This document shows, piece by piece, positions 8,723-33,793 of a stretch of 64,000 bases of DNA (positions within the stretch are counted from its first letter, which is position 1; each line of letters begins with the position of its first letter). The stretch spans positions 19,177 to 83,176 of the forward strand of contig UQLO01000005.1 in the NCBI GenBank assembly GCA_900541865.1. The letters are read 5' to 3'. The notes below the pieces were generated by a model. That model did no database searches, was not told the DNA's origin, and saw nothing but the letters and a program-made list of their open reading frames with translations. The DNA comes from an uncultured Porphyromonadaceae bacterium (GTDB lineage Bacteria; Bacteroidota; Bacteroidia; Bacteroidales; Muribaculaceae). The position numbers and the translations under genes were made by a program.

Positions 8723-8932
8723 TCGCGAATGGACGGGGGGCGCTGTTATTGTATGGGGCGGCATACCCGGGGCTGTCGCCCCGGGCTACATTCTTGAACC
8801 CTTACAGGGTTCTTTTTCATTAGTTTAGGTTGCTTTTTGAGGCGAATTCCGCCGGGGTTCTCGATTTGGAAACTGCAGAAAAAAAATCACCGCATCGGCG
8901 GATGCGGTGACTCTGAAGCGTTGTATGCGTGG

Positions 8933-15781: not shown

Positions 15782-15811
15782 ATTTGGTGTTGAATGTTGG
15801 TTTTCTGTTGG

Positions 15812-16486
15812 TTATTGTCCGCCGTAAGTGAAGGTGTCGACGTGTACCCGCTGCCCGCGGTGTGTAAGCCGGGCGCGGTAGGTGCGCACATCGGCGCCGT
15901 TTTTGATGCGGATATTGACGAAGCCGCCGTTGGGAGCCTGACTGTTCATGCTGAACATCACCACGTCGACGCTGTAGCGGCCCGGCTGAGGATTCGACCA
16001 GAAGACGTTCTCCACGGCCGTCTGCCGGCGGGTGCCTCCCTCGCGGTTGTCCACATCGAGCTGGGCCCCCGTATAGGGATTGCTCATATTGTTGTAGGCA
16101 ATCTCATTGCCGGAAGGCTCGGTGACGTGAACGTCCACATCGCCCGGAAAGCCCCATTCGATGGTAACGCGAATCTCGCCGTCCTGCCCGACATCGGTGC
16201 GCACCGGAGGCGCCGGCTCTGGTTCGGGCTCGGGCTCCGGCTCAGGCTCCGGTTCGGGTTCGGGTTCAGGTTCGGGCTCGGGTTGCGGTTCTGGCTCGGG
16301 CTCGGGTTCGGGCTGCGGGGCAGGTTCCGGAGCGGGGTCGTCGTAGATTTCGATTGGTGCAGGTTCCGGCAGAGGGGCGGCCGCAATTTCCGGCTCGGTG
16401 CGACACGAGTGACACTTGCTCAGAAGAAGCAGCGTCACAAGCAGTATGAATGCGCCTGCTATACAGGCTTTCAGTTGATTGTTCAT
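15812..16486 (-). CDS. Membrane-anchored paralog 1: TM helix, a (Pro-Glu)n linker and a DUF2135(YfaP)-like C-terminal beta-domain
   Basis: [25 protein letters not shown], then [18 protein letters not shown]..., then [27 protein letters not shown]...LDVDNREGG...[20 protein letters not shown]. The N-terminus is near-identical to paralogs 2 and 3. Confidence 0.6.
16207..16336. repeat. Hexanucleotide (GGYTCN)n tandem repeat encoding the (PE)n linker of paralog 1
   Basis: About 21 consecutive near-identical 6-nt units. On the antisense strand they read as GSGSGS. Confidence 0.8.
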
Positions 16487-16495
16487 AGCCGGAAT

Positions 16496-17089
16496 TTATT
16501 GGTTGGCCCGCGGTTGGTAGTCTATGTCGACAACGCTAACCTCCTGGCCGACACTGCGAAGCGTAACGGGGTATTCGGTGCGTTCGCCGTTGTTGAACAC
16601 CGTCACCATCACCGTACCGCCGTTCTCGCCGCCGGACCGTTCGCTGAAGAACTTCACCATCACGTGATAGCGGCCGGCCGGCGGACGCTGCCAGTAGACG
16701 TTTTCGGCCGCCGGATGCCCCGGCGAGCCCCCCTGAAGGTTGTCGACGTCGAGGTTGCCGCCGGTCTGGTAGTCGTTTTTGTTCATAAAATTGATAGTAA
16801 CGCCGTTGGGCTCGGTGACGTGGATGTCGATGTCGCCCGGAAACTCCCACGTCAGCACTATCTTAAGGTCGCCGGTACCCCCGATGTTTGCGGCGTCGGT
16901 GGGGTCTTCCGCGGGAGGCTCCTCCACAGGAGGTTCCTCAATTACCGGAGGGTCTGCCACCGGCTGCTGCGCGATGGGGGGCGGTTCAGGAGTTCGCTCA
17001 TCGCGGCAGCGGGTGCACTTGCTCAGCAGCAGCAATGTGACAAGCAGTATGAAAGCACCGGCTATACAGGCTTTAAGTTGGTTGTTCAT
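16496..17089 (-). CDS. Membrane-anchored paralog 2 (TM helix, Pro-rich linker, DUF2135-like domain)
   Basis: Same [26 protein letters not shown]-terminus. C-terminal GDLKIVLTWEFPGDIDIHVTEPNGVTI...LDVDNLQGG...ENVYWQRPPAGRYHVMVKFF. Confidence 0.6.
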   Translation of the reverse strand: MNNQLKACIAGAFILLVTLLLLSKCTRCRDERTPEPPPIAQQPVADPPVIEEPPVEEPPAEDPTDAANIGGTGDLKIVLTWEFPGDIDIHVTEPNGVTINFMNKNDYQTGGNLDVDNLQGGSPGHPAAENVYWQRPPAGRYHVMVKFFSERSGGENGGTVMVTVFNNGERTEYPVTLRSVGQEVSVVDIDYQPRANQ

Positions 17090-17108
17090 ATGGGTTTGGA
17101 GAGTTGGT

Positions 17109-17588
17109 TTATTGTGCAGTATAACGGAAGGTATGGACTGTCTCGTCCTGTCCGGTCGTGGTAAGACGCAGGTTGAACTCCTGCTGCCGGCCGTTGACCT
17201 TCACCACAACGCGCACAGGGCCACCCTGAGGAGCCTCGTCGTCGACGCGGTAGTAGACCACCCGAACAACATAGGTGCCCTCCATAGGGCGCCGCCAGTA
17301 TGCGTTCTCGGCCGACCCTTCGCCGCCCTGACGGTCGTCGACGTCGAGGACGCCGCCGCCGTTGGCCGAGTCGTCCATGTTCATAAACGAAAGCTCGGTG
17401 CCGTTGGGCTGGTCGACGTGAAGGTCTACGTCGCCCGGAAAGTCCCAGAAGAGCGTAACTTTGATGTCGCCGTCGCCGCCCACTTCCTCCGGAGCCGGCC
17501 CGCGACGACGCCCGCACGTGCTCAGCAGCAGCAGCGTAATCAGCAGGATGAAAGCCCCGGCAAGATATGCTTTGAGTTGGTTGTGCAT
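17109..17588 (-). CDS. Membrane-anchored paralog 3 (TM helix, short linker, DUF2135-like domain)
   Basis: MHNQLKAYLAGAFILLITLLLLSTC...GDIKVTLFWDFPGDVDLHVDQPNGTEL...LDVDDRQGG...ENAYWRRPMEGTYVVRVVYY. Confidence 0.6.
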   Translation of the reverse strand: MHNQLKAYLAGAFILLITLLLLSTCGRRRGPAPEEVGGDGDIKVTLFWDFPGDVDLHVDQPNGTELSFMNMDDSANGGGVLDVDDRQGGEGSAENAYWRRPMEGTYVVRVVYYRVDDEAPQGGPVRVVVKVNGRQQEFNLRLTTTGQDETVHTFRYTAQ

Positions 17589-17595
17589 TTGGGTA

Positions 17596-17889
17596 TCAGA
17601 TGAAGAAACACAGGAAGGCCGCCATCAGCAGAATCTGCAGCAGTAGCAGCAGGGGCACTGCGATGTAGAACAGCGGCTTCGACGTCTTGTGGTTGAAAAA
17701 TACCATTGCGCACAGACCGCCGAAGGAGCCCATGGCGAAGGAGCACATCACCAGCACCCACTCCGGGATGCGGAATTTGCGGTAGGTGGCGCAGTGCTTG
17801 TCGTAGGCAAAGAGGATGAAGGTCAGTATGCTCATCACATACACCACCGGCATCACTATATCGTAGAAAAGCGGATTGGGTAGTATCAT
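17596..17889 (-). CDS. DUF1294-family small membrane protein
   Basis: 97 aa with two TM helices and ...YDKHCATYRKFRIPEWVL...GSFGGLCAMVFFNHKTSKPLFY..., which matches the DUF1294 signature (WRIPE...GG..GA....HKT.K). Confidence 0.55.
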   Translation of the reverse strand: MILPNPLFYDIVMPVVYVMSILTFILFAYDKHCATYRKFRIPEWVLVMCSFAMGSFGGLCAMVFFNHKTSKPLFYIAVPLLLLLQILLMAAFLCFFI

Positions 17890-17895
17890 GTTTGG

Positions 17896-19695
17896 TCAGG
17901 CAAAGAGGTTAGGGCAGCTGTAGAATATTTTGTCGAGAAGGAAGTACAGGCCGGTCAGCGTAAGCACTGCGGCGGCAGCCAAGGCTATCTCTCCCACGAT
18001 TTTCCACCATGGCTGCGGGCCGTCGACCTCGATGAGTTCGTACTGCTTCTCGTCGGGCTCCAGAGGCAGTTCCAGCGCCGGGAAGGTGCGTACCGGGGAG
18101 TACATCTCGACTTTGGCCGGCCGAGTATAGTCGAAGCTGTCGCTGCCGAAGAACATCATGCCGTTGCCATCGAGCTGAGCGGTGATGCGCTTGCTGTCCT
18201 GGCTTACTATGCAGGTCACTCCGGCCGCCGGTGCTCCGTTGCGCTGCACAACGCGCAGGCTCACGTCGCCCAAGTTCGGCACCGAGTCGTAGGGCAGACG
18301 GAACACATACTCTGTCCGGTCGGCATCCAGCAGGAAGTCCTCGCGGTAGTTGGGTTGATTGGTGTCGCAAACCGTCATGGTGTTGCCGCTCAGCACGTGG
18401 ATAGGCCCGACGCAGCCTTCGGCGTCAGTAAGGCAGTCGACCATGCCGCTGCCGTCGCCGATGTTGATGCTCACCGGGTAGAAGGCCATCGGCGATTCGG
18501 TATTGTCGATAACGCGCACTCGGCAGTCGAATTCAACCGGTATGGGCGTGTCGAAGGCCATGTGGAACTCAACGGTGCCGTCCTGCGCCGGCTGGCTTTC
18601 GGAGCGGTCGCGTACGGAGGCCGTAACCTTGCCCCCGGGAACATAGTCGGCTTCGAAGGAGGCCGAACCGTCGTCGCCGGTGTAGACGTTGACCACAGCG
18701 CCGTTGGGCAGCGTTAGCGAAACGCGCTCGCCCGCGATGGGCGCGCCGTTGTCGGTCAGCGTCACCTTTATGAGTGTTTTCGGTACTCGCGGTGTGGTGC
18801 TCTCGAAGACGAACTCGTTGAGTATGTCGCGGCGAAGCTCGCGCTCCTGAGTGGAGTTGCGGAAGGTCACCGCGCACTGCTCGTTTTCGAACCACGGCAG
18901 CGTGCAGCCCGCCGTGCCCTGCTCAAGAGTGAGAATGCCCGACCGACGACCGTACTTGATTTGCACGTCTTCCCCGCTGATGGGTGCGTCGTCGTGGCGG
19001 GCGATGACCCGCAAGGTGAGGTACTGCGTCACGTCGACGTTGATATTGGTCGTCGTCGGCTCAACCACGGTGATGCGCTCTATGCCCGTGGCGGCATCGC
19101 GAACCGAAATCTGAGCGCCGGGCATATGCCGCCCGAAGCTGTAGTAGCCCTTGTCGTCGGTCTGTGCCGTGGCCCACTCCATACCGCGGGCAAAGCTGAA
19201 CTCGCGGTTTGCAACCGGCTGCCCGTCGATCGAGAACGAAACGGTGATTTCGTTGATATTGTCCGACTCGATGGTTTCCGATATCACCGTGGCGTGCGCG
19301 CGGTTATAGTTGGCGAAGCCCCAACCCGTCAGGCGAAGTTCCAGCGGACCGTCGTTGCGGCGACGTACGAAGATGAAGTCGTCGTTCGGGAAGGTGAATA
19401 CCTGCTTAATCTGTTGGGCACGAGCCGGCAGTCGCTTTATGGCTTTTTCCTGAAGTTGGGCCAGAAGGGCGCGGGCCTCTGCCTGGTCGCCCTCCGAAAC
19501 AACCGTAAGCGGCTTCCAGCCGTCGGCGTCGGGCTCCGACCAATAGTAGCTGCCGTGGGTAACGTAGACCGGCGCAAAATACTGTGCGTCAGCTCCCATG
19601 GTTTGCTTGATGCGCGCGTTGGCGACATCGCGCACGTTCCAGTTGGCTACTTGCCAGTGGACTTCTGTGCTGGGTACTTCTTTTATCTTGGGCAT
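17896..19695 (-). CDS. Tail-anchored membrane protein with a globular N-domain and several Ig/CarboxypepD_reg-like beta-sandwich repeats
   Basis: Repeated ...VSLTLPNGAVVNVYTGDDGSASFEADYVPGGKVTASV... type modules. C-terminal TM helix IVGEIALAAAAVLTLTGLYFLL. A 6-bp gap to the next gene. Confidence 0.5.
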   Translation of the reverse strand: MPKIKEVPSTEVHWQVANWNVRDVANARIKQTMGADAQYFAPVYVTHGSYYWSEPDADGWKPLTVVSEGDQAEARALLAQLQEKAIKRLPARAQQIKQVFTFPNDDFIFVRRRNDGPLELRLTGWGFANYNRAHATVISETIESDNINEITVSFSIDGQPVANREFSFARGMEWATAQTDDKGYYSFGRHMPGAQISVRDAATGIERITVVEPTTTNINVDVTQYLTLRVIARHDDAPISGEDVQIKYGRRSGILTLEQGTAGCTLPWFENEQCAVTFRNSTQERELRRDILNEFVFESTTPRVPKTLIKVTLTDNGAPIAGERVSLTLPNGAVVNVYTGDDGSASFEADYVPGGKVTASVRDRSESQPAQDGTVEFHMAFDTPIPVEFDCRVRVIDNTESPMAFYPVSINIGDGSGMVDCLTDAEGCVGPIHVLSGNTMTVCDTNQPNYREDFLLDADRTEYVFRLPYDSVPNLGDVSLRVVQRNGAPAAGVTCIVSQDSKRITAQLDGNGMMFFGSDSFDYTRPAKVEMYSPVRTFPALELPLEPDEKQYELIEVDGPQPWWKIVGEIALAAAAVLTLTGLYFLLDKIFYSCPNLFA

Positions 19696-19710
19696 ATCCT
19701 TGTGTGGTTT

Positions 19711-20679
19711 TTATCGTGTTACAGGGCCGGCTTCGAGGTTTGTGAGCCGGTCTTTTACGCTCGCGAAAGCCCGCGAGGCTTCCTCGCTGAAGAGTAGCGA
19801 GGGCAGGTTGGCCTGAAGTGCGGTCAACTGTTCGGCCACCGCCACCGCCGCGGCCGGGTCGTTGATGAGCCGACGGTCGGAGGGCAGGCTTCGAAGTGTG
19901 GCCAGAAATTGGCCGCGCTCGGCGTTCTTGTATGTCGTTTCAGCGTTGGTAATGCGGTCCACAAAGCGCTGCTCGGCAAGTGCCGGCCGCAGCCAGCTCA
20001 CGTTGGAGAGGTCCTCGCATCTTGCCAGGCGGTCCTGAAGATTGCGGCGCCGGCTGTCCATGCGGGTGCGTAGGGCGGAGTAGTTTTCCAGACGGTCGTC
20101 CCAGTCGAGCGAGTAGCCGGCCGCCGAAGGCACAAGCCGCAGGTTGAAGCGCGGGCTTGTGACGAAGGTCTGGGTGGCGAAGCTGTGGATGCCGTCCCAA
20201 ACCTCGCGGTCTTCCATAAGGCGGGCGTAGATGCCCCGCTCCCGGGCTACGGGGTAGTCCGCGCCTATTCTTTCGAGGCCGGCATAGCTTGGAGCAAGCA
20301 CGCTGTGACGACTCGTGCTCGTCGGAGTGGGATTGGAACGGTAGACGCCACGTACTATACTGTCGAGCTTCACCATTATGCCGCTCACCAACTGGTCCGA
20401 CATCTGCTCCTGCGAGCTCTGGCGGTCCGGATGAGCGATATACGAGCATGCATTGGCATAGAGCGTATCGTTCCAGCCGCCGCCGAACATCGCCACATAT
20501 TCGCGGATAACGGCGCCTTCTTCGCCCCCAACATCGGCTATTTCCTCTACCTCGATGTGGATGTTGTCGCCGTGGAAACGGTGGCGGCCGCTCGGCTTGT
20601 CGGGCGTCATCAGTATATAGCCCAGGATGACTGTCCCGACCAACACTCCTATAACGGCCAGTATCTTGATGAAATTCAT
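19711..20679 (-). CDS. N-terminally membrane-anchored hypothetical protein (322 aa)
   Basis: TM helix MNFIKILAVIGVLVGTVILGYIL. The rest is soluble and helical. No motif recognised. Confidence 0.45.
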   Translation of the reverse strand: MNFIKILAVIGVLVGTVILGYILMTPDKPSGRHRFHGDNIHIEVEEIADVGGEEGAVIREYVAMFGGGWNDTLYANACSYIAHPDRQSSQEQMSDQLVSGIMVKLDSIVRGVYRSNPTPTSTSRHSVLAPSYAGLERIGADYPVARERGIYARLMEDREVWDGIHSFATQTFVTSPRFNLRLVPSAAGYSLDWDDRLENYSALRTRMDSRRRNLQDRLARCEDLSNVSWLRPALAEQRFVDRITNAETTYKNAERGQFLATLRSLPSDRRLINDPAAAVAVAEQLTALQANLPSLLFSEEASRAFASVKDRLTNLEAGPVTR

Positions 20680-20687
20680 TCGGGGGC

Positions 20688-22538
20688 TTATTTATCGACG
20701 ATTGGTTCTTCGCTTTCTGTTTCCGCACGGTCGAGTACCTTCATACTCTCGTCGGTGGGGGTGGCTACGGCTGTTTCGGCAACAACGGAGTCGGTTGGTG
20801 CAGAGGCCACTGTCTGTTCGGCCGGTGCGGTGCCGAAGCCAAACTTTCCAAGGACGTTGTCGTAGGCGCTGATAAACGTGTCAGCCATTAGCACTCCGAT
20901 TACGATGCCGGCTATCATCAGCACCATTCCCACAACCGCCGGCAGAAGCGAGCGCCAAATCTTCCAGCTTCCGGGCACGAAGTTTTCGTATCGGTAGGCG
21001 AAAAGATCCGAAACTCGGCTGAAGAAGCCGTTTTTCTTGGCTTGGGTGAAGTCGGCTTTGTAGTTGCCGTCGAGGGTAGAAAGTATTTGGGTCTCTTCCC
21101 TTGCCGGTATGCCCAGGAAGGCCTTGGCGCGATGCGTCTGCAGGTTCAACTGAATATCAATAGTAGCATTCCGGGTCTGGCCGTCGGGGCTTAAGGTGAA
21201 AATAACCTGCGATGCAAAATAGAATTCCGGGGACGCATTGTCGTCTGCAGTCTGAACGGTGATGGTTTCACTCGTAGTATTCATGCCCACAGGCAAAACC
21301 ACGGTCAGCGTCTTTGCCGACGGGGCCGTTTCGGCATTTTGGGGCCCGGGAGCGGGAGGCATCACGGGGACCGCAGGTGCCTTGCGACGTACTTTCACGG
21401 TGATGACATTCCCCGTCAGCGTAGCTCCGACGATGTTGTAGACGCTCGTGGGAGGAAGGCTGAACTTAGCTGCCAGCGCCGTCGCGTCGTGGAAGTCGCG
21501 CTCGAAGCTGACTATGTCTTCGCCAATAAAAGTGTAGCCTATGGGATTGACCGGGATGGGAGCAGTGCTCTCAAGAGTAGTCAGCAGGTCCGGCAGGGGA
21601 AGAGGTCGGTGGTCGCCGTCGACAACATTCACCGTAAAGGTCTTGCGAAGCGCCGGAGGGCTGAAAGACAGCGTGACTTCGCCGGCCTCCGGACTCAGAG
21701 TCGCCTCAACGAAGGGCGGAGTGGCTATTTTTCTGTCCCCGTTGCAGTATGCGGCTTCGACTTGGGCCTCTGTCAGGGTGTACTGCATGTCTTCGTAGGC
21801 CTGCGGAGAGTAGTCCAGTTCGCGGGTATTGATGGTGATGGCGCCCCCGTCCATTGCTCGTGGCACGAAGCTGCCGTTGCGCCGTCTTACGTTCACCAAA
21901 ACTTTGAAGCGAACCGCAAGCTCATCCGGGAAGAACATAAACCGAGGCTGAGCCGTCTCCTTGAACGGCCCGAAATAGACGGTCGACGAATCTTCCAGGC
22001 GTGTGCAGTGGGGCAGGGCGGCTATCAGGGCCGGTATGTTCTCTTCGGTGGCGGTAACGTATTGGGGATGGCCAGATGCGTGCCGCATAGTGATTTCGCC
22101 ACCCCAGCGGGGCTGGATGTGGAATTGTCCCAGCAAAGCCCCCAGGTCCGCTTCCGGGAAAGCCGGACGAATCACACCCGGCGCAAAGCGCAGCGTGTTG
22201 CCCAGATGCACAACGGGGTTGCCAATCAGCATCTTGGTGGCTTCGTGGAGTATATAGGAGGGTGCCACGGGCTGGTTCTGCGCGTTCAGGAAGGTGTAGC
22301 CGTGGGGCACCCGCAGTAGTATGCGCAGCGCCTCCGTGCGGCCCGAATTGCTCACGAAGTTACACAGGGCCAGCTCGTAGGTGTCCCATTCCGGACCAAG
22401 TATGGCCGAAATATAGCTTTCGCCCGAACACATGGCGTGAACGTCTTTATCCTCCGGCGCCGGGCCGGGCCAGTTTATCTGGGTGAATACCAGAAAGCCG
22501 GGATGACGGCCGGCTATTGCCAATCCTATTTGTGCCAT
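20688..22538 (-). CDS. Hypothetical 616-aa protein with a C-terminal TM helix
   Basis: Large soluble region plus a Pro-rich segment. TM helix LLPAVVGMVLMIAGIVIGVLMA near the C-terminus, then an acidic tail. An 8-bp gap to neighbours. Confidence 0.45.
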   Translation of the reverse strand: MAQIGLAIAGRHPGFLVFTQINWPGPAPEDKDVHAMCSGESYISAILGPEWDTYELALCNFVSNSGRTEALRILLRVPHGYTFLNAQNQPVAPSYILHEATKMLIGNPVVHLGNTLRFAPGVIRPAFPEADLGALLGQFHIQPRWGGEITMRHASGHPQYVTATEENIPALIAALPHCTRLEDSSTVYFGPFKETAQPRFMFFPDELAVRFKVLVNVRRRNGSFVPRAMDGGAITINTRELDYSPQAYEDMQYTLTEAQVEAAYCNGDRKIATPPFVEATLSPEAGEVTLSFSPPALRKTFTVNVVDGDHRPLPLPDLLTTLESTAPIPVNPIGYTFIGEDIVSFERDFHDATALAAKFSLPPTSVYNIVGATLTGNVITVKVRRKAPAVPVMPPAPGPQNAETAPSAKTLTVVLPVGMNTTSETITVQTADDNASPEFYFASQVIFTLSPDGQTRNATIDIQLNLQTHRAKAFLGIPAREETQILSTLDGNYKADFTQAKKNGFFSRVSDLFAYRYENFVPGSWKIWRSLLPAVVGMVLMIAGIVIGVLMADTFISAYDNVLGKFGFGTAPAEQTVASAPTDSVVAETAVATPTDESMKVLDRAETESEEPIVDK

Positions 22539-22545
22539 GGTGATG

Positions 22546-24528: not shown

Positions 24529-24564
24529 GTCTGTCGGTGGTTTAAGAGAAAGATGACAGGGGCG

Positions 24565-25545: not shown

Positions 25546-25558
25546 TTCTTTCTTTGTG

Positions 25559-27445
25559 CTATACGGTTTTTATGAGGAATGGAGCGAAATTGTTCCACCA
25601 CGATGCATTGACCGCGGTGACGGTAGCTTTGGAAGCCGGATTGGCGCTCACTGTGAAGGTGATGGGGTCGAAGCCGCGCCCCGTTTCGGATGTGCCGGTG
25701 GTGGCCGAGCAGTTTATGTTGATGCTCGTGCCCTGGACTTCGCTGGTAAAGTCGGCTTCGATGGGTGCCGTGTCCCGTCGGTTGGAAATGTAGCGCAGTT
25801 TGCCGCTGTCGGTCCCGGTGATTTCAAGCTCCATGGTGTAGATGGGAGGCAGCGCCGTGGCGTCGTCCGTCCCTAAATAGTCGATTTCGCAGAACTTGAA
25901 GGTGCCGCGGCCGGAGGCGAGGGCTGCACGGAAGTCATCGTAGTTCGCTATGGTGGTGTAGATTTGCTGCAGAGCCGGCCCGATCTGGACTATGGGGCCG
26001 ATGGTGCTGCTTTGGGCGCCGCGCACCGGAAGAGCCGTGCTTTGGAGCACTTCTATGATTTCCGGAGTGGTCAGCGTCGGGTCTATGCTCTTCACCAAGC
26101 CCACGCAGCCCGCAACTATAGGCGCAGAGAAGCTCGTACCGTCAACGAGGGTGTAGCCCGTGGTGCCCGGTATAAGGCCGGGAACCTGCGCGCCCGGTGC
26201 CGACAGTGTGCTCTCGAAGATGCTGTCCGAGGCGATGTTGCCGAAGTTGCTGAACTCCGCTTTGCTCATAGAGGCATCCGTGGCGCTGACCTTGATGGTC
26301 TCGTCGCCGCGCTTGGAGGCATCCAAGGCAAGGAATATGTTCTCATTGCCTGCCGCCCACACTATGCTGACGTAGTTGCGCCGGGCCATTTCGAACACGT
26401 AGTGCCACACTGCCTCCTGGGCTATAAGCTCTGTCCGGGCGGCCGCTATCTGCTGCTCGAGGGGCCATCCGGCAACCTCTTCGGCGAAGCTAAGTCCGGC
26501 CGAGATGTTGATTACCTGCGCTTTGTGGTTCATCGCATAGAGTATGCCCTGAAGCATGGCCAGACAACCGAAGCGGTGTCCCAGGCTGATGGGCAGGAAG
26601 CTGCATTTGGGGGCCATGCCGGCACTGGCGCGGCCGTTGCCGGTGGCGCCCAGCACAATTCCGGCAACCATGGTGCCGTGAGCGTACGTCGGGTCGGGAC
26701 GGCTCGGGTTGTAGTCCGAAGGCAGGGCGACGATGGAGTCGCCGCGGGCCACGCTGTAGGGCCGGACAACGTTGGTTTCGGCAAATTCTGCGTTGCTCAG
26801 ATCGAAATAGCTGTCGACAACGGCTATCAACACGTCGGGCGAACCCATGGTGAGGTCCCAAGCGTCGTAGGCCTTTATGGCGTCGAAGTAGTAGGCGTGC
26901 TCGCTCCGGCCGAAAACCGGGTCGTTGGGACGAAGCCCCATCTCCATAACGCTTTCCTCGAAGACCATGAAGGGTATGTCGGGTATGCGCTCCGGAAGCT
27001 CCGTAATCATGGCCACGCGGCGCTCTGCCGGGACCTGAATCGACATCAGCTTGGTATTCGGGTCGTAGAAAAGTATCTGATAGTCCGGTGCCGGGTAGGC
27101 CGCCGTAAATTGCTCTACCCACGACTCGTATTCGGCTTGGCCGGTCTCGAGGTCGAAAAGCACGTTCAGGCGGTTCGCCACCAACTGGTGCCCGTCATCG
27201 TCAATGACGTCGTCCTCATTGATCGGAGGAACGACGACACTGACGGGCTGATTCGGACTCGGCACCCCCACCGAGGGTGTCTCGCTGTCGCGGCAGCTGC
27301 GGAACTGGCTCAGCAGGAACAGGAACAGCGCCAGAAGGGCTACAAAGCCTGCCGTCCGCAGAAAGCACCCCGCGCAGCCCCACGGTTCCCAGAAGAAGTA
27401 GTGCCACTTCACCGGTCCTTTGGAATCAAAATGTACGCGCTTCAT
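25559..27445 (-). CDS. Membrane-anchored S8 (subtilisin-family) serine peptidase
   Basis: N-terminal TM helix. Catalytic triad context: Asp AVVDSYFD, His HGTMVAGIV, Ser GTSFSAPIVAG. Confidence 0.8.
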   Translation of the reverse strand: MKRVHFDSKGPVKWHYFFWEPWGCAGCFLRTAGFVALLALFLFLLSQFRSCRDSETPSVGVPSPNQPVSVVVPPINEDDVIDDDGHQLVANRLNVLFDLETGQAEYESWVEQFTAAYPAPDYQILFYDPNTKLMSIQVPAERRVAMITELPERIPDIPFMVFEESVMEMGLRPNDPVFGRSEHAYYFDAIKAYDAWDLTMGSPDVLIAVVDSYFDLSNAEFAETNVVRPYSVARGDSIVALPSDYNPSRPDPTYAHGTMVAGIVLGATGNGRASAGMAPKCSFLPISLGHRFGCLAMLQGILYAMNHKAQVINISAGLSFAEEVAGWPLEQQIAAARTELIAQEAVWHYVFEMARRNYVSIVWAAGNENIFLALDASKRGDETIKVSATDASMSKAEFSNFGNIASDSIFESTLSAPGAQVPGLIPGTTGYTLVDGTSFSAPIVAGCVGLVKSIDPTLTTPEIIEVLQSTALPVRGAQSSTIGPIVQIGPALQQIYTTIANYDDFRAALASGRGTFKFCEIDYLGTDDATALPPIYTMELEITGTDSGKLRYISNRRDTAPIEADFTSEVQGTSININCSATTGTSETGRGFDPITFTVSANPASKATVTAVNASWWNNFAPFLIKTV

Positions 27446-27504
27446 TTATTGTGGATTATTAAACAATTTACACTCTGCTTTATTTAGTTGCTACGTTTTA
27501 GCTC

Positions 27505-30438
27505 TCATGCCACTATGCGGGCCAGGAGGTCGCCCAAGGCGCGGTTCACCTCCGGACGAAGTTCCGAGCGCTTAAGGTGCACGATGTAAGCTATGGTCAT
27601 ATACTCGATCCACTCGTTGTAGTGGTTATCGAACGATTCGGTGATGTTGCCCGCGTCGGCTATCATGTCGGCGAAGAGCCCGGCAAGTTCGTCGTGTGTG
27701 TAGGTACTCTGCCGTTCGCGCTCTATGTAGTTGTAGACGCTCAGCTCGTTGTCCTCCACCAGCTTGTGGGCCTTGGCCTTGAGCTCGGGCGAAAGCAGCG
27801 AGTAGCCGAAGTCGTTGACGAAGCCGTTGATTACCGAAGCCATCATATCGGCCACGAGGCTTTCCTTGACCATCGCGATATTGGCGATGCTTACCTCCGA
27901 CCGGATTTTCTCCGCAAGGATATCGGCAAGCCCGAGCCGTTCGGCGCTGTCGACCAGCGTCTTGATGAGGTCTTTCATCAGCACCGGGTTGAAGGTGTCG
28001 TCGCCGGTGAAGGTATTCATAAGTTCCTCCGAGCGCACCTTGTTGCGCCAAAGCTCCATGATGTGGTCGGCAATGAATACCTGGTTCGTTTTGGGGCGTA
28101 GTGTTTCGGTGAAGAGCAGCTCCACGTCGATGCCGCGCTTGGCAAGATTGTCGGCGGCCTGCTCGCGGGTGCGCCAGCCGTAGGCGCGCATCAGCTTCTG
28201 CCATTTGAGGTCCGCCGTCGGGCAGCCCTCGAAGTTGCCGCACCGCTTGCGGATGAGCTGGTACTCCTTCATGTTGTTGAGTGTGTTGTTAAGGTCGGTG
28301 CCGTTGACAAGCTTGTGGACCACGCTCAGACATTCAACTTCCGTAACCTGGAGCGCCTGCAGAAGGTGCCCGAAGTAGTAATTGTCCTCCGTGCACGAGG
28401 CATCAAGCTCCCAGCGAAGGTTGGCAACGGTGTCGATGCTCTGAAGGAGCTTTTCGGCTTCGTTGTCGGAGTCGTATTCAGCCTCCAGGATGGCACGGAC
28501 CTTGCCCATTATGTTGTCGCGCTCACGCTTCATCTGCTCCGTGCGTATCTCGGAAGCAGCCCGCGCTACTTTGCCCATGCGTTCGATGATGTAGAGGGCG
28601 CCGTCGTTGTTGAGCGTCGTCGCAACGTCCCACGACAGCTCCGGGTCGAAGAAGAGCTCGCGCACACTCGGATTGGCCACGAAGGTGCGCCGTAGCAGGC
28701 GGTAGTAGTCCGGTTTCATCGCAAGCTCGCGCTCCGGCGACGAGGTCTCCACGTTGTAGCCCTCGAACATTCCGTTGCCTTGGCCCGTGCAGGCGCAGTA
28801 GGCGAAGCTGCGAAGTAAATATGTATCCTTGAACGATTGGCCCTGGCCGCTCCAGTTCTTGAACCAGTCGGCGTTGGTCCAGTTGAGCACCGCATCCAAA
28901 AGCACGGTGCGGAAGCGGTCTTCCCAACGGTTGTTGACGGCAGTCTCGGAGTTGAAACTCGATATGTCCTTGTACGTCATATCGATGTTGATCTTGGTGG
29001 CTACCAGCATCAGGGGTGAGATGCCGCCGGTGCGCCGAAGAGTGGACATGCGTTCGTCGGCGGTGGCCCCGACATTGCGGCGCACCCACTGGTCGAGCAG
29101 TATGTGGAGGTTCTTCACTTCGCTCTGCTTGTGGTGGTGGCAGAACATAAGAACCTTCATCATGTGGCTTTCGCTGTAGTGGTTGAAGAGGTAGGCGATT
29201 TTGCCGCGCAGGAAGAGTTTCACAAGCACCGACTGGCCGCTCTTGTCGCGCTCGCCCTTTCGGCAGTTGGCCTCGTCCTGCTGCTCGGGGCTGCGGGCGC
29301 CCGGGAAGTCGAGCAGGTCGGTGTCGGAGAGCAGGCTCTTGTCGACGGTCGAAGCCAGCTTGTGGTACGAGGCTGCCGGCAGATGGCCCGGCTCGGTGTC
29401 GCGGGTGCGGTCGTAGCCGTAGTGCAGGGTCTCCTCGAGGTATTCCGGGTCGATTTTGAAGATTACCTCGGCGCTGACGGCGCATATGTCGCAGGTCGGC
29501 ATGGTGCACACCTGACGCAAGGTCGACGGATTATCGTTGACAGGCACGAACACCGGCGACGTTATCTCCCAGTCCGGCTCATCGAGTCCGTTGAGGCACG
29601 CCACCGACATTATGGTCCGCTTGTTCTCCCCTCCGTGCATAACCGTCTCAAGCGGAACGTAGACTTCCGGTGCGAACCCGAAGCGCTCCAGGTCGGCAAT
29701 CAGGCGGCAGAAGAGGTCGGAAATGGCCTCGTTTTCATGCCAGAGGTATTTGAGCACGTTGACCCATTCGGCGGCCGGTACTCGCCGGATGATGCGGGTC
29801 ACGGTCTCGAAGTAGCGGCTGCGGCGAAGACCCTGCGTCGGGGCCGACATATACGCTGCCAGATAGCTCTTCACGTCGAGTATATCGTCCTCGGTCAGTG
29901 CGGTTTCGCCCTGTTCGGGACGACCGGCGTAGGTCTTGTAGATGCGGTCCGAAATCTGGCGTAGCTCTTCGTCGGAGTAGGTGGTATAGTCCAGTATGTT
30001 GCCGAAATAGCCCGATGAAAGTATGCTCACTATCTGGCCGGGACGCAACAGCTTAACTATCACGGGGTATTCCTCGTTGTAACGCTCCGGATTGCGCTTG
30101 AAGCTGGTCAGGCGCGTCACTACGCCGGTGGCCTCGCGGTCGTCGCCGATAGGGTTGATGGCGTCCACGAATCCTACCCCTTCGGGATAGGCCGTCGAGC
30201 GGATGCGGAATGCTTTGTCGGTGCGGTTCAGAAGGGTGTTGATCTGATAGCTCTTGCCGGTCTGGCTTTCGCCGAAGGCGCCTATGGCCGGATTTTCGGT
30301 CAAAGCGTTAAGCTGGCGAAGAAGACGCCGGCGCCCGTCGACCATGGTGAAGAATGACTGCTCGTACTGCTCCGGTTTGTTGTCCTTGAGCCACTGGAGG
30401 CCTTCGTTGATTATCTGGATATCGTCGTTGATTGTCAT
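27505..30438 (-). CDS. Large dynamin-like P-loop GTPase (977 aa), possibly SrfC-like
   Basis: N-terminal G1 GAFGESQTGKSYQINTLL, G3 LLDFPGA, and a degenerate G4 region ATKINID. Long alpha-helical C-terminal region. Confidence 0.5.
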   Translation of the reverse strand: MTINDDIQIINEGLQWLKDNKPEQYEQSFFTMVDGRRRLLRQLNALTENPAIGAFGESQTGKSYQINTLLNRTDKAFRIRSTAYPEGVGFVDAINPIGDDREATGVVTRLTSFKRNPERYNEEYPVIVKLLRPGQIVSILSSGYFGNILDYTTYSDEELRQISDRIYKTYAGRPEQGETALTEDDILDVKSYLAAYMSAPTQGLRRSRYFETVTRIIRRVPAAEWVNVLKYLWHENEAISDLFCRLIADLERFGFAPEVYVPLETVMHGGENKRTIMSVACLNGLDEPDWEITSPVFVPVNDNPSTLRQVCTMPTCDICAVSAEVIFKIDPEYLEETLHYGYDRTRDTEPGHLPAASYHKLASTVDKSLLSDTDLLDFPGARSPEQQDEANCRKGERDKSGQSVLVKLFLRGKIAYLFNHYSESHMMKVLMFCHHHKQSEVKNLHILLDQWVRRNVGATADERMSTLRRTGGISPLMLVATKINIDMTYKDISSFNSETAVNNRWEDRFRTVLLDAVLNWTNADWFKNWSGQGQSFKDTYLLRSFAYCACTGQGNGMFEGYNVETSSPERELAMKPDYYRLLRRTFVANPSVRELFFDPELSWDVATTLNNDGALYIIERMGKVARAASEIRTEQMKRERDNIMGKVRAILEAEYDSDNEAEKLLQSIDTVANLRWELDASCTEDNYYFGHLLQALQVTEVECLSVVHKLVNGTDLNNTLNNMKEYQLIRKRCGNFEGCPTADLKWQKLMRAYGWRTREQAADNLAKRGIDVELLFTETLRPKTNQVFIADHIMELWRNKVRSEELMNTFTGDDTFNPVLMKDLIKTLVDSAERLGLADILAEKIRSEVSIANIAMVKESLVADMMASVINGFVNDFGYSLLSPELKAKAHKLVEDNELSVYNYIERERQSTYTHDELAGLFADMIADAGNITESFDNHYNEWIEYMTIAYIVHLKRSELRPEVNRALGDLLARIVA

Positions 30439-30470
30439 TGCAGGATTGTGTTATGGTGGTACCTCCGGTG

Positions 30471-33400
30471 TCAGCGTGTCTGGACGCTTAATTCAAACTC
30501 ACCCTTGTCGAGCCAGTGCTGGCCGTCGTTGACAAGGCTTTGGCCGATGAACTCTATCTGGTTCAGAGGCACCTGGTCGCCGTTTTGGTCGCATACGTCC
30601 TCAAGCACGAGCTTTTCGGGCTCGCCCTGGAAGTCGCGGCTGATGGTGACGCGAAGGCTCCGACGCCCCGAGTTGTTGTACAGCGCGTAGATGGGTCGGC
30701 CGTCGTAGAGCGGATGGTCGAACTGCTTGGCACCGAAGAAGGCCGGGAAGACCGTCAAGGTGAGATTTTCGCTGTTGTGGGTCGGGGTGAGCAGCGTGGA
30801 ACCCATCCGGTCGCCCTGGTAGAGGCATACGTAGTTGTCGGTGCTCCGGAAGTGCTTTACCATATCGTCAAACCGGATGACCATGCCGTTGAAACCCTCT
30901 GTGGACGCCAGATAGCCTACCATGGCGCCAACGGCCACAACGGCCTTTTGGTCGCGGAAGTAGCCCTCCGGGTCCGCAAGGGGATACCACTGGCCCACTC
31001 GGTACTCGTTCAGGCGCACCAGGCGGTCCGGGGTGACGGGAAGATATTTCACGAACAGCTCGGTGATGGCGTCGATCGACGTCGGGCGACCCGACAGCAC
31101 GATGATGTCGCACCGGTGTGCGTAGAGCATAACCGAAATCTGCTGCATCAGCTTCTCCATGGTGCTCTTGACGATGTCGGCCACTCGCTCCGGGTCGAAG
31201 CGCCACTTCAACTCCTCGAACCGGAATCCGAAGTGGTTGGCAAAGTAGTCCAGCAGGTATGCCGACGGCTTGATGTCCGGGAAAATTTCGCTGAAGGTGT
31301 AAACACGCGACGGACGGTGAAGACGCAGCTGCTCCATAAAGAACTGGGCCATCGGGTGGCTAACCTGGGTGTTGAAGTCCACGCGGCAACGACGGTCGCG
31401 GTCGTCCATCATCGTGGAGTCAACCCCGAAGAAATTGCGCGTCAGACCGGAGGCAAGGCGTTGCTTCAAGGTGGCCGTCTCGCGCGGGTTGCCCGAGGCA
31501 CTCCGAAGGTCGTTGACTATACCGCGGAAGAAGCTGTGGCGGCTCATAACAGGGATGGCGGCGATTTCTTCCACTTCCATGTTGTTAAGCCGTGCCGTCA
31601 GGGCCGAGTAGATGCTGCCCATAGAGGGGTCGTCGCCGGTAGCGTCCTCGATGATGACGTTCTGGATGATGTTGCGGAGTATATCGTCGCCGGCAACGTA
31701 GAAGCTGTCCCAGAAAATGGGACGAGGAGTCAGAGTGCCGGCGTCGTTGCCCGAGCACATGTAGGTGCACACCATCACGTCGGTGGTGCCGGCGCCGATA
31801 TCGACCGAGGCAACAGTCACGGCCTTGTCGTTGTAGCCCTCTTTGGCAAGTTCGGGGCGAACGTGGCCCTTGAGCTCGAAAAATTCGCGGGCGCGGCCTT
31901 TGTAGCGCTGGGCGATTTCGGCGTAGAGGTAGACGAGCTGGCAGCAGGTGGCCTCGTCGTAGGTCCAGGTGGCGTTGTCGTCGCCCATACCCGGGTCCGC
32001 GTCGGCCGGATTGACCGAAAGTTTCTCCACCGAAGGATATACTTCGATGTCGTTCAGCTTATCATCGGGGTATACTGCCTTAAGAGCCTCGAAGGCATCC
32101 ATGGCGCACTGGCGAAGCTTGATTTGCTCAGCCTTGGGCATAGCCGTGGGGCACGTCAGTATGAGGTTGCGGAGCACTCGCTTGCAGTTTATGTCGCCGT
32201 GCTTGCGGAACTCGGTGGAGTTGATCTGCATCAGTGCCTGCTGGAGCACTTCGACCAGCACGAAGGTCATCAGCGAAGCGCGAGAGTAGTGGGTGTGGCC
32301 GTCGGTGGGCTCTACCATATTGTCGATGTCGCGGATGAACTCGCCAGTGGCATCGAACTGGTCGGACAACCCCGGTATGTAGATGTTCTCCGACTCGCGG
32401 ATGTACAGCGGGTCGTTTTCGGTGGTCAGGAACTCCCACTTTTGGCGGAACATGCGGGTGTCCCAAAGGTAGCGCTTCGGGCTGGAGTAGTTGGTGGTGC
32501 TGGCCCAAAGTCCTTCCGATTCCACCGAGCGGTAGACGAGTTTTTTGGCCTCGTCGCCGACTCGAACCATCGACGGATAGCGGAACATATCCTCGTCCTC
32601 AATCACGATATCGTTGGCAAAGTCGGCCTGACGGAACACCAGGCGCATGTCGAAGGGCTTGTCGTAGCTCATCCACGGGTCGGTGAGGTCGCGCAGGGAG
32701 AGCATGGTGGCCTTGGTGAAATCGCCGTTCTCGAAGAGCAGGCCGCAGGTGCGCGAGTTGCCGATGTCCAGTACAAGGTCGACCGGTATCTCGCGGTCGG
32801 CCGGACAGCGGTGTAGCGTAACCTCGGGGGAGGCTCCGATTAGGCGGATGTAATTAACCAGATAGATATACCAACCTATGTAGCGGTAGGCGCTACCGGA
32901 GGGGTCAAGGCCGAGCAGTTCGGCCAGATAGTGGCTGAACACGGTGAAGTCGCCCTTGGGAGCCATGAAGGTCAGCAGATTGCTCACCCGGTTGCACAGG
33001 GCGAACTCCAGCTTGTCGATGCCCTCTACGGGGAAGGTCGGTCGGAAGATGGCCATGTCGTCTGTGCTGATCTGGGTGTCGAAGGCCCAGGTGAAGCGGT
33101 AGCGGTCGGTGCCGGGCTGCTCGCCCTCGCCGGTACGGTCGATGCGCAGTCGGCACCACGCGTAAGGAACGTCGGCGCTCACCCCGTTGTGCATCTCGAA
33201 CATAGGCATCGGTAGCCATTTACCCAGTATTAGCTCGAAGGCCGCTATCCGCTCGTGCACGTTGGCCGGATTGGGCGTTTTGTACGATGCCGGCGAGTTG
33301 AAGGTGAAAAGCCGCTCGGCGTCGCCCGGTTCTATCTGGTTGTAGAACGTCGGCGATACGTCCGACCGCATTATCTCAACGCCCGATTCGTCGAGGCGCG

Positions 33401-33644
33401 CCCGGCCGTCGGCCAGCAGTTCGTTGGCGCGGTTGTCGGTGATTTCGTGCACCGGTATGAACTTGCCGATGGAGCCGTGGTACGACAGCAGGTCGAAAAG
33501 GCGCTCTCCCGTTTCTTGGTTCTTGATGTTGCAGAAGCTGTATTTGAGAGGACGCCCCGACGGCAGCGTGAGCTGCTGAGCCGGATCAAGCTCTAATTCT
33601 ATGGAATGGAACTGTATGCCGCTGTCGGCAATGAGATGGAGCAT
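30471..33644 (-). CDS. 1057-aa protein with an interrupted actin/Hsp70-fold ATPase core (SrfB-like)
   Basis: Phosphate-1-like VLDIGNSRTCGLLFENGD and phosphate-2-like VASVDIGAGTTDVMVC, separated by about 330 aa. Confidence 0.5.
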   Translation of the reverse strand: MLHLIADSGIQFHSIELELDPAQQLTLPSGRPLKYSFCNIKNQETGERLFDLLSYHGSIGKFIPVHEITDNRANELLADGRARLDESGVEIMRSDVSPTFYNQIEPGDAERLFTFNSPASYKTPNPANVHERIAAFELILGKWLPMPMFEMHNGVSADVPYAWCRLRIDRTGEGEQPGTDRYRFTWAFDTQISTDDMAIFRPTFPVEGIDKLEFALCNRVSNLLTFMAPKGDFTVFSHYLAELLGLDPSGSAYRYIGWYIYLVNYIRLIGASPEVTLHRCPADREIPVDLVLDIGNSRTCGLLFENGDFTKATMLSLRDLTDPWMSYDKPFDMRLVFRQADFANDIVIEDEDMFRYPSMVRVGDEAKKLVYRSVESEGLWASTTNYSSPKRYLWDTRMFRQKWEFLTTENDPLYIRESENIYIPGLSDQFDATGEFIRDIDNMVEPTDGHTHYSRASLMTFVLVEVLQQALMQINSTEFRKHGDINCKRVLRNLILTCPTAMPKAEQIKLRQCAMDAFEALKAVYPDDKLNDIEVYPSVEKLSVNPADADPGMGDDNATWTYDEATCCQLVYLYAEIAQRYKGRAREFFELKGHVRPELAKEGYNDKAVTVASVDIGAGTTDVMVCTYMCSGNDAGTLTPRPIFWDSFYVAGDDILRNIIQNVIIEDATGDDPSMGSIYSALTARLNNMEVEEIAAIPVMSRHSFFRGIVNDLRSASGNPRETATLKQRLASGLTRNFFGVDSTMMDDRDRRCRVDFNTQVSHPMAQFFMEQLRLHRPSRVYTFSEIFPDIKPSAYLLDYFANHFGFRFEELKWRFDPERVADIVKSTMEKLMQQISVMLYAHRCDIIVLSGRPTSIDAITELFVKYLPVTPDRLVRLNEYRVGQWYPLADPEGYFRDQKAVVAVGAMVGYLASTEGFNGMVIRFDDMVKHFRSTDNYVCLYQGDRMGSTLLTPTHNSENLTLTVFPAFFGAKQFDHPLYDGRPIYALYNNSGRRSLRVTISRDFQGEPEKLVLEDVCDQNGDQVPLNQIEFIGQSLVNDGQHWLDKGEFELSVQTR

Positions 33645-33686
33645 AGCCTGGGGTGATTGGTTTGCGATTGTTATTTTCCGCTAAAT

Positions 33687-33722
33687 TAGCCTTTTTTTTG
33701 CGTTCGCAAAAGCTTTTGGCGC
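33687..33722 (-). promoter_or_regulatory. Candidate promoter for the 12-gene array: TTTG-N18-TAATTTAG on the minus strand, overlapping a palindrome
   Basis: The minus strand reads gcTTTTGcgaacgcaaaaaaaaggcTAATTTAGcgg. The plus-strand palindrome cgcAAAAGCTTTTggcg (33693-33709) overlaps the -33 element. Confidence 0.3.
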
Positions 33723-33793
33723 GAAATCTTACGGATTGGCCGTTTTCGCTGACGAATTGGCGGGGTTACGGGGCCGGAGTGGTCCTTATGGCA

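Follow-up and report, generated by a model that had tools for sequence, protein, structure and literature searches.

The "virulence factor" families SrfB and SrfC are widespread, and what they do has been obscure since 2000. As reported in a preprint of September 2026 (bioRxiv 10.64898/2026.09.18.752743), their partner SrfA consists of a cytoplasmic SrfA-N domain that resembles a pseudokinase, a transmembrane (TM) helix, and a periplasmic lipocalin-like domain. SrfA-N has a kinase-like fold without the kinase catalytic motifs, and in AlphaFold 3 (AF3) models it serves as a platform that binds SrfB and then SrfC. In Xenorhabdus, SrfA, SrfB, and SrfC co-immunoprecipitate, and crude lysates of E. 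coli over-expressing SrfABC are cytotoxic and insecticidal upon injection, for which all three parts are required (PMC6950479). Salmonella srfABC is regulated by SsrB and FlhDC. In Salmonella, the operon is under FlhDC control, and an srfC mutant swarms poorly (PMC4219756). In this study, we analyzed a window of 64,000 nucleotides (the whole stretch of DNA, positions 19,177 to 83,176 of the forward strand of contig UQLO01000005.1, assembly GCA_900541865.1) from an uncultured Porphyromonadaceae bacterium that GTDB places in Muribaculaceae. An array of twelve genes in this window (g1 to g12) is very probably a single operon for a Srf system of the Bacteroidota type, in which multiple proteins form a complex across the inner membrane.

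Membership in the Srf family makes the array one of a kind already known; the Bacteroidota version with its enlarged accessory set is new. A preliminary description of the window had presented the array as a candidate novel system. This stands for the architecture, as our literature search found no account of a Bacteroidota Srf architecture, and falls for the family, to which the array belongs through SrfB, SrfC, and the SrfA-N-like domain of g8. Similar to proteobacterial SrfABC, the array encodes homologous SrfB and SrfC, a membrane-anchored SrfA-N-like protein, and variable accessory envelope genes downstream, and the three proteins are expected to assemble at the cytoplasmic face of the inner membrane. 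In contrast, the proteobacterial order is A-B-C, whereas in the window SrfB-SrfC is followed by five genes and then by g8, which has Ig/macroglobulin-like repeats and no lipocalin-like SrfA-C. The accessory sets also differ: an S8 protease, a 4-TM protein, a Ras-like GTPase, g6, g7, and DUF1294 and DUF2135 proteins in the window, compared with a 339-aa protein, a vWA protein, a LolF-like ABC transporter, and FGE in Proteobacteria. With hhalign, g4, g6, g7, and g10 showed no homology to the proteobacterial/Mesorhizobium accessory proteins (339-aa, vWA, 322-aa, and 239-aa).

Organization of the operon

Twelve minus-strand open reading frames (ORFs) were confirmed, running from 33644 down to 15812 (~18 kb; Table 1). 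The spacers from g1 to g12 are, in order, 32, 59, 13, 36, 7, 8, 15, 6, 7, 19, and 9 bp, so that the co-directional packing with 6–60 bp gaps given in the preliminary description was recovered with gaps of 6–59 bp. A gap of 149 bp precedes g1, and one of 30 bp follows g12. The G+C content of the window is ~59%, and the start codons of the array have no Shine-Dalgarno sequences, as is usual for Bacteroidota. The leader before g1 contains TAATTTAG, to be compared with the Bacteroidetes −7 box consensus TAnnTTTG, and is probably the operon promoter. Within the array, neither sigma-70-type promoter-like sites (7 vs. 6.8 expected from shuffled sequence) nor terminator-like sites (19 vs. 20.3 expected) are enriched. 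A single transcript is plausible; these counts fit it and do not prove it.

Table 1. Window coordinates and predicted features of the array, its leader, and the adjoining gene
Feature	Length	Coordinates	Strand	Assignment	Details
Leader	149 bp	33645..33793	-	Intergenic leader upstream of SrfB, putative promoter	TAATTTAG at 33681-33688, near-consensus Bacteroidetes -7 box, 37 nt before ATG
g1	1057 aa	30471..33644	-	SrfB, predicted cytoplasmic Hsp70/actin-fold ATPase	Pfam PF07520
g2	977 aa	27505..30438	-	SrfC, large predicted cytoplasmic P-loop NTPase	Pfam PF10139 (Virul_Fac/SrfC)
g3	628 aa	25559..27445	-	S8 subtilase with N-terminal membrane anchor	TM 27-45; Pfam Peptidase_S8
g4	326 aa	24565..25545	-	4-TM membrane protein	~195 aa loop between TM3 and TM4, presumed periplasmic
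g5	660 aa	22546..24528	-	Predicted cytoplasmic GTPase	Ras-like G domain after all-helical N-terminal domain of ~370 aa
g6	616 aa	20688..22538	-	Orphan	Big N-terminal domain, presumed cytoplasmic; TM 534-552; acidic low-complexity tail
g7	322 aa	19711..20679	-	Orphan with N-terminal TM anchor	TM scan
g8	599 aa	17896..19695	-	Putative SrfA-like platform protein with Ig-like/macroglobulin-like repeats	SrfA-N-like domain ~aa 21-137; C-terminal TM 569-587
g9	97 aa	17596..17889	-	DUF1294 3-TM mini-membrane protein	Pfam PF06961
g10	159 aa	17109..17588	-	Membrane-anchored DUF2135/YfaP-like domain	N-terminal TM; linker ~15 aa
g11	197 aa	16496..17089	-	g10 paralog	N-terminal TM; Pro-rich linker ~50 aa
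g12	224 aa	15812..16486	-	g10 paralog	N-terminal TM; (Pro-Glu)n linker ~80 aa
S9 peptidase		13721-15781	-	S9 prolyl oligopeptidase with PD40 repeats	30 bp past g12

Cytoplasmic nucleoside triphosphatases

The SrfB/SrfC-like pair suspected at the head of the array was identified by Pfam: g1 matches PF07520 with an E-value of 1.1e-157 (527 bits, cut-off 27.1), and g2, the next gene 32 bp downstream, matches PF10139 with an E-value of 1.7e-99. The AlphaFold2 model of g1, built from 67 homologues (predicted local distance difference test score, pLDDT, 86.7; predicted template modeling score, pTM, 0.88), has a two-lobed RNase-H-like ATPase fold with additional beta domains at the N- and C-terminus. 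From Bacteroidales to Klebsiella and Rahnella, its phosphate-1, phosphate-2, and adenosine motifs do not vary. The model, together with these motifs, confirmed the predicted Hsp70/actin-like ATPase fold that had been proposed for this protein. By sequence search, no PDB relative of SrfB was found, and Pfam at E<=10 on fragments around the SrfB motifs gave no actin-family match. An hhalign comparison of SrfB with the Rahnella Hsp70 protein HscC aligned the adenosine motif alone (E 0.01, 4% probability) and was superseded by the structure prediction.

The SrfC motifs GxSQxGKS (56–63) and DLLDFPG (374–380) are present in 41 of the 41 orthologues that cover those columns (42 aligned), and their core residues are still invariant once proteobacterial SrfC is added. 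TK[F/I]N is found as the G4-like motif, and G1 is separated from DxxG by ~315 aa. For g5, the motifs GIxSxGKT, FNLFEMAGE, and TKxD are invariant across orthologues, and the G1 to G4 motifs are all present. The structure model of g5 (pLDDT 86.1) combines a helical N-terminal domain (~370 residues) with a Ras-like G domain. As modeled, g5 is a genuine GTPase with a small Ras/Rag/YcjX-like G domain and is not dynamin-like. No Pfam or NCBIfam family matches g5, and hhalign detected no homology between g5 and SrfC. Sequence searches of PDB chains with SrfB, SrfC, and g5 returned nothing or chance nanobody matches, and NCBIfam gave nothing for six of the eight large array proteins, SrfB and SrfC among them.

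Accordingly, the "two dynamin-like GTPases" of the preliminary description were not recovered. The matches of the SrfC profile to GBP1/2/5 in the PDB are non-significant and confined to the P-loop (E 0.5–0.8), and the hhalign alignment of SrfC with the E. coli dynamin-like protein RdcA/YjdA is likewise restricted to the P-loop; the dynamin kinship of SrfC is unproven. The array shares large membrane-associated NTPases and an accessory multi-gene locus with Eleos/LeoABC and B. subtilis DynA, which are dynamin-like systems for defence or repair, and the membrane repair or defence role of these systems is a plausible analogue. In contrast, the array has no PADLOC Leo/dynamin match, SrfC is similar at the P-loop only, and g5 is Ras/Rag/YcjX-like.

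The SrfA-like anchor g8

Pfam matches to MG4 (9.3e-10), CarboxypepD_reg (1.1e-9), and Big_1 bear out the Ig-like repeats that had been noted in this tail-anchored protein. In addition, the N-terminal ~110 residues of the g8 family profile (44 sequences) align to SrfA by hhalign, with probabilities of 71%, 89.7%, and 94.1% when two, five, and nine SrfA sequences are used. In the nine-sequence run, aa 21–137 of g8 align with aa 27–152 of SrfA (E 1.3e-7, 112 columns), and the two share the motifs DWY/YWS, FP(D/N)xxx(I/V)(F/Y), and LT(G/F/A)WG(F/Y). Metagenomic clusters that also contain S8, g4, or g5 (L108, L114, and L118) supplied three of the added SrfA-N proteins. At the 94% level of hhalign, the N-terminus of g8 is predicted to be an SrfA-N-like domain, newly recognized here. 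Because g8 carries this domain, the array would hold a full SrfA/B/C set and nine further genes. An SrfA-N-type anchor in g8 would unify the Bacteroidota and proteobacterial systems and gives a testable layout, in which motors sit on a membrane platform with a periplasmic protease arm.

The g8 protein stops 12 residues past its TM and lacks the lipocalin-like periplasmic domain SrfA-C, and its Runella homologue (1101 aa, 3e-117) continues for ~580 residues past the TM. A profile search with the N-terminal domain of g8 in an index of 5.8 billion proteins found only six fragments. Some loci (L033–L035, L037, and L011) duplicate g8, with a second copy of 547 aa without a TM, or g6, and many loci have extra unassigned N-terminal-TM proteins of 267–331 aa between g7 and g8. 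The duplicates and the additional TM proteins point to a modular expansion of the membrane-proximal parts.

Membrane and predicted periplasmic components

TM segments were taken from hydropathy scans, and the topology was inferred from hydropathy only, with the positive-inside rule for g3. These scans reproduced the membrane segments previously assigned to the 4-TM, 616-aa, 322-aa, 599-aa, and DUF1294 proteins and to the three paralogs. The TM-anchored S8 protease was also recovered: g3 has an N-terminal TM and matches Peptidase_S8 (E 5.8e-33), and its residues D211/H256/N367/S438 (the catalytic triad and the oxyanion Asn) are invariant in 41 orthologues. From these residues, g3 is predicted to be active, and its catalytic domain is probably periplasmic. 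The best NCBIfam match of g3 is the type VII secretion system (T7SS) mycosin TIGR03921 (4.5e-26; 91.8 bits, under the cut-off of 278.75). Similar to mycosin, g3 is a membrane-anchored S8 protease within a multi-protein envelope machine. In contrast, the anchor is N-terminal in g3 and C-terminal in mycosin, and the window has no ESX components.

The other membrane proteins are mostly orphans with conserved positions. No match to g4 was found in Pfam, NCBIfam, or PADLOC; its orthologues occur in 39 loci, in Runella (3e-57), and in most metagenomic loci. The g6 protein has no family match in Pfam or NCBIfam, was found in 39 loci by an iterated hidden Markov model (HMM), and is kin to a Runella 784-aa protein (hhalign 95%). 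For g7, 37 loci and a Runella homologue of 275 aa (2.6e-9) were found. The DUF1294 assignment of g9 held (PF06961, E 6.1e-18), and g9 is present in 38 loci.

The three paralogs g10–g12 had been called DUF2135-like. No DUF2135 Pfam match was obtained even at E<=10, and g11 and g12 gave weak P_proprotein and PPC matches. By hhalign, however, the family aligns to aa 142–257 of E. coli YfaP, the type protein of DUF2135, with 97.6% probability (E 2.9e-12, 27% identity), which upholds the assignment. The main difference among the three proteins lies in the linker between anchor and domain, which is rich in Pro and Glu and measures ~15, 50, and 80 residues. This gradation was found again in relatives (18/44/73, 18/44/77, 18/57, and 19/57). 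If the linkers were extended, the same domain would be held at three periplasmic depths. The family occurs in ~20 of ~41 loci with copy numbers from 0 to 3. The E. coli yfaP-yfaQ-yfaS locus resembles the array in that the DUF2135 domain of YfaP is homologous to g10–g12 and g8 has macroglobulin-type MG4 repeats. In contrast, the window has no full alpha-2-macroglobulin, YfaQ, YfaT, or YfaA, and the MG-like repeats of g8 are predicted to be cytoplasmic.

The stalk of g12 is encoded by a hexanucleotide tandem repeat (GGCTCG x17, 16215–16319), in which slippage could alter the length and hence tune the stalk. A conserved CxxC/KCxxC motif follows directly after the N-terminal hydrophobic segment of DUF2135 paralogs in the window, L002, L004, L005, and L039 (e.g., SKCHSC, SKCTRC, and NCRGC); it may represent a variant lipobox, form a disulfide, or bind a metal. 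Antisense to g11/g12 lies a 456-aa ORF (15794–17164, plus strand) whose Gly/Leu/Arg/Phe repeats mirror (PE)n. It is almost certainly spurious, and a length-greedy gene caller takes it over g11 and g12. In L001, an opposite-strand 456-aa gene is also called just past the lone DUF2135 paralog of that locus; public annotations here may be wrong.

A set of parts of this type would also suit a toxin-export or vesicle-delivery machine. In such a machine, the Srf proteins or protease-processed cargo (e.g., the DUF2135 proteins) would be released, perhaps in outer membrane vesicles (OMVs), against eukaryotic predators, host cells, or competitors, with the NTPases driving budding and the S8 protease maturing the cargo. 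An actin/Hsp70-fold ATPase and large NTPases suit membrane remodeling, several membrane-anchored extracytoplasmic proteins are present alongside a processing protease, and Bacteroidales are prolific vesicle producers. The toxicity of Xenorhabdus SrfABC lysates, with all three parts needed (PMC6950479), and the preference of the preprint for OMV-mediated SrfABC export (bioRxiv 10.64898/2026.09.18.752743) point the same way. However, the toxicity was seen in crude lysates of over-expressing E. coli, and the OMV proposal was reached by exclusion, not by experiment. Moreover, signal peptides are absent from SrfB, SrfC, g5, and the large domains of g6 and g8, all of which are predicted to be cytoplasmic. 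Pfam scans found no recognizable toxin domain in any of the 12 array proteins, in agreement with the preliminary description, and the hosts here are gut and rumen commensals. Collectively, these observations make an exported toxin or vesicle machine unlikely; if it were true, the array would be relevant to microbiome-host and microbe-microbe interactions.

Conservation within Bacteroidales

When the g5 profile was used in a pattern-based scan of 185,579 species genomes, which gives a lower bound on the number of loci, 38 loci were found, nearly all titled Bacteroidales and with no other order named, in support of a Bacteroidales origin. The carriers include Muribaculaceae, Prevotella, Alloprevotella, Barnesiella, and "Porphyromonadaceae" UBA7207, which are gut and rumen commensals. 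Gene order is kept across the 38 Bacteroidales species, with g5 only 25–43% identical to that of the window, and g3 to g9 were recovered in 37–42 of ~41 loci in unchanged order (tblastn and iterated HMMs). Loci found via SrfB instead of g5 show the series SrfB-SrfC-S8-328aa-610aa-... in five other chromosomal contexts. The arrangement of the array is far beyond chance, and the gene neighborhood is co-conserved in the 38 species and the SrfB-anchored loci alike.

In the closest group, the flanking genes are 73–79% (SpoU) and 62% (RecN) identical to those of the window. Within the array, the identities are 71–86% for SrfB, 63–80% for SrfC, 51–65% for S8, 43–59% for g8, 36–43% for g5, 25–40% for g4, and 23–29% for g6; over g4–g7 as a whole, the range is only 23–43%. 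These per-gene identities indicate that the motors are highly constrained and that the membrane and periplasmic parts diverge rapidly. In a set of 1.84 billion proteins, the g5 family counts 701 representatives at E<=1e-3, and SrfB forms at least 1679 clusters at 90% identity.

Relatives beyond Bacteroidales and mobility

The plasmid pSP2_1 of Runella sp. SP2 (Cytophagales, NZ_CP031031.1; L042/L045) carries the order SrfB-SrfC-S8-g4-g5(short)-g6-x-g7-x-g8(long), directly downstream of a BREX-1 system at a distance of ~1.3 kb. In this BREX-1 system, an AAA ATPase and restriction endonuclease pair lies between pglX and pglZ, and an M12 metallopeptidase and a DDE transposase are encoded further downstream of the cluster. 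A metagenome scan found 431 SrfB relatives, and neighborhoods were drawn from the best 80 of these 431. Most of these 80 loci that are long enough to show it contain the SrfB-SrfC-S8-g4-g5 core, down to a SrfB identity of 29–35%, and some metagenomic relatives have the order SrfB-SrfC-SrfA.

SrfB homologues also occur on 144 plasmids and srfABC on 114 Klebsiella plasmids, and the SrfB and SrfC of the window are 27–28% identical to the plasmid copies. A Rahnella plasmid has SrfA-SrfB-SrfC alone. On Klebsiella/Lelliottia plasmids (L044 and L054), SrfABC is followed by a 339-aa protein, a vWA protein, an ABC ATPase, an FtsX/LolE-like permease, and FGE/SUMF1, and a Mesorhizobium plasmid encodes a trypsin-like protease, an SrfA-N-like protein, SrfB, and SrfC. 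In Barnesiella-like loci (L063, L065–L070, and L075; SrfB ~50% identical), genes for a NusG/UpxY-like protein (~240 aa) and a trypsin-like protease (356–380 aa) lie on the same strand immediately before SrfB. These are probably extra components, namely, an antiterminator that serves the long operon and another protease. Since the protease is S8 here and trypsin-like in the Mesorhizobium and Barnesiella-type loci, the protease partner has been recruited twice from unrelated folds.

In five loci (L105, L112, L113, L130, and L132; SrfB ~30% identical), a Bacteroidetes-type tyrosine integrase is located 250–320 bp upstream of SrfB, and a TraG/TraD coupling protein lies next to the integrase in three of them. 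The integrase and, in three, TraG/TraD mark these copies as cargo of conjugative elements, placed at the end that bears the integrase. Pfam identified eight phage-type integrases in the 140 proteins encoded in the upstream flanks of 21 loci, and PADLOC matched MzaB/MzaC, DrmMII, AbiEii, PDC-S01, PDC-S27, and a type II methyltransferase. A strong defence-island signal was upheld only in part. Phage carriage was rejected: of 2.9 million viral contigs, only one bears an SrfB relative, at the contig end. The mobile and BREX context could not have been read from the window alone, as it was found only in other loci. Collectively, these results indicate that a much larger Srf version exists in Bacteroidota of the gut and rumen, the core of which moves on plasmids and conjugative elements and appears to recur in hundreds of gut and environmental loci.

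The breadth of these loci bears on whether the genes belong together at all. Most accessory genes have no known family, and an unrelated S9 peptidase lies just 30 bp away, as would be expected of mere neighbors with unrelated functions. However, order and content are kept across Bacteroidales families, Cytophagales, and metagenomic loci with ~30% SrfB identity, and the flanks differ every time. The absence of any system is effectively refuted by these observations, and we regard it as extremely improbable.

The same loci can be read as physiological envelope machinery for the maturation or quality control of surface proteins, remodeling during growth and division, or surface behavior, with no role in conflict. 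Consistent with this, the operon has resided vertically for a long time beside housekeeping genes in Muribaculaceae, where SrfB is as conserved as SpoU, and the five other contexts also have housekeeping neighbors. A NusG/UpxY-like antiterminator is encoded upstream in 13 of the 80 metagenomic loci, and such antiterminators are typical of long Bacteroidales surface-structure operons. The poor swarming of the Salmonella srfC mutant and the FlhDC control of its operon fit as well (PMC4219756). Against this, the distribution is patchy, with 38 species (again a lower bound) among the 185,579 species genomes, the genes are carried on integrative and conjugative elements (ICEs) and plasmids, and the membrane and periplasmic parts evolve very fast and vary in copy number. 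A purely physiological role is improbable on this balance.

Proposed function in envelope surveillance

We propose that the array is a Bacteroidota-type Srf system and acts in envelope surveillance and response as a horizontally mobile accessory module. The functional part of this proposal is tentative, and for the whole, Srf identity and surveillance together, we estimate a probability of roughly 0.45. At the cytoplasmic face, the SrfA-N-like domain of g8 would dock SrfB and SrfC, and g5 and the large cytoplasmic domain of g6 would join there as lineage-specific regulators or adaptors. The periplasmic face would present the S8 domain, the g4 loop (195 aa), g7, and the DUF2135 domains on their Pro/Glu-rich stalks of ~15/50/80 residues. 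These fast-evolving periplasmic and membrane parts may detect or process an envelope disturbance, such as phage, contact-dependent attack, or a membrane-active agent, which the S8 protease would convert into a signal. The conserved NTPases would then give a nucleotide-driven membrane response, either remodeling and repair or shutdown of the cell. Gene content, folds, motifs, co-conservation, and mobility come from the present analysis, and the mutual binding of SrfA, SrfB, and SrfC comes from the literature; we inferred the topology, the direction of signaling, and the biological trigger.

A functional analogy, and only that, is offered by TagQRST-PpkA of the Pseudomonas H1 type VI secretion system (H1-T6SS). 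As reported, TagR (COG1262) and TagS (COG4591), with TagQ and TagT, act upstream of the TM kinase PpkA as sensors of membrane damage (PMC13584744, PMC10482370). By the common logic, a periplasmic or outer module would sense envelope damage and signal, via a TM protein whose cytoplasmic domain is of kinase type, to a machine in the cytoplasm, and proteobacterial srf clusters carry TagR-class (FGE, COG1262) and TagS/T-class (LolE-like ABC) genes. In contrast, genes for TagQRST, PpkA, Fha, and a T6SS are absent from the window, Pfam found no FGE, ABC, or kinase domain in any of the 12 array proteins, and the output would be SrfB and SrfC, not a T6SS. The surveillance reading is favored because of mobility, the BREX, ICE, and defence neighbors, and the fast divergence of the exposed parts, because NTPases are paired with a protease, and because proteobacterial srf clusters carry TagR- and TagS/T-class genes.

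Several observations weigh against this reading. Within the clade of the window, the neighbors of the operon are housekeeping genes (RecN and SpoU; a ribosomal operon; RRF; Der), mobile elements are absent from its vicinity, and the operon has co-diverged with these neighbors, unlike typical fast-turnover defence islands. By raw counts, a minority of the 21 flanks had defence or mobility neighbors, and many of the other PADLOC flank matches collapse to one SNF2 helicase. For g1–g8, a search of PADLOC-DB 2.0 identified no defence system, as the preliminary description had stated, and gave a generic subtilase model (9.4e-11) and a chance REase_I match (0.0037). The phenotypes of Srf proteins known from experiment are lysate cytotoxicity (PMC6950479) and reduced swarming (PMC4219756), neither of which is defence, and the experimental data all come from outside Bacteroidota. 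The membrane topology of the array was derived by hydropathy only. Finally, g8 has no periplasmic SrfA-C domain, its link to SrfA is profile-profile only, and NCBIfam at E<=0.1 gave no SrfA match for g8. This last negative is weak, because NCBIfam also gave nothing for the SrfB and SrfC of the window.

If an envelope-damage sensor or defence function were true, an Hsp70/actin-fold ATPase would form the basis of a mechanistic class that is new, and the srfABC annotation in pathogens would change. A bolder version of the surveillance proposal, which we consider doubtful, makes the array the founding example of an unrecognized class of mobile, envelope-spanning immune or surveillance machines in Bacteroidota. 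The DUF2135 proteins on graded stalks would form a "depth gauge" that, with the anchored subtilase, senses when a phage tail, a T6SS spike, or a membrane-active agent breaches the envelope. From there, the signal would pass via the pseudokinase-like SrfA-N anchor to the Hsp70/actin-fold ATPase and the two GTPases, which would seal, remodel, or sacrifice the cell. The 25-year-old "virulence factor" family SrfABC would then be reinterpreted as a damage-sensing system.

Flanking genes and other features of the window

Upstream of the array, the same strand encodes the housekeeping SpoU/TrmH-type methylase, RecN, and DUF4835 (Pfam). Downstream lie the S9 prolyl oligopeptidase, DUF6155, and DUF3108 (Pfam). 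In line with the preliminary description, a Pfam scan of 18 array and flanking proteins found no integrase or transposase domain. The S9 prolyl oligopeptidase is on the same strand as the array and may be co-transcribed with it here. As a member of the system it was rejected, and it is placed outside because it is missing at that position in related loci. Elsewhere in the window, a tRNA gene lies at 3874–3944 on the minus strand (Rfam, 58.2 bits), and an Acido-Lenti-1 RNA motif, unexpected in Bacteroidales, lies at 8766–8811 on the plus strand (Rfam, 39.6 bits vs. a gathering score of 37 bits; E 1.8e-5).

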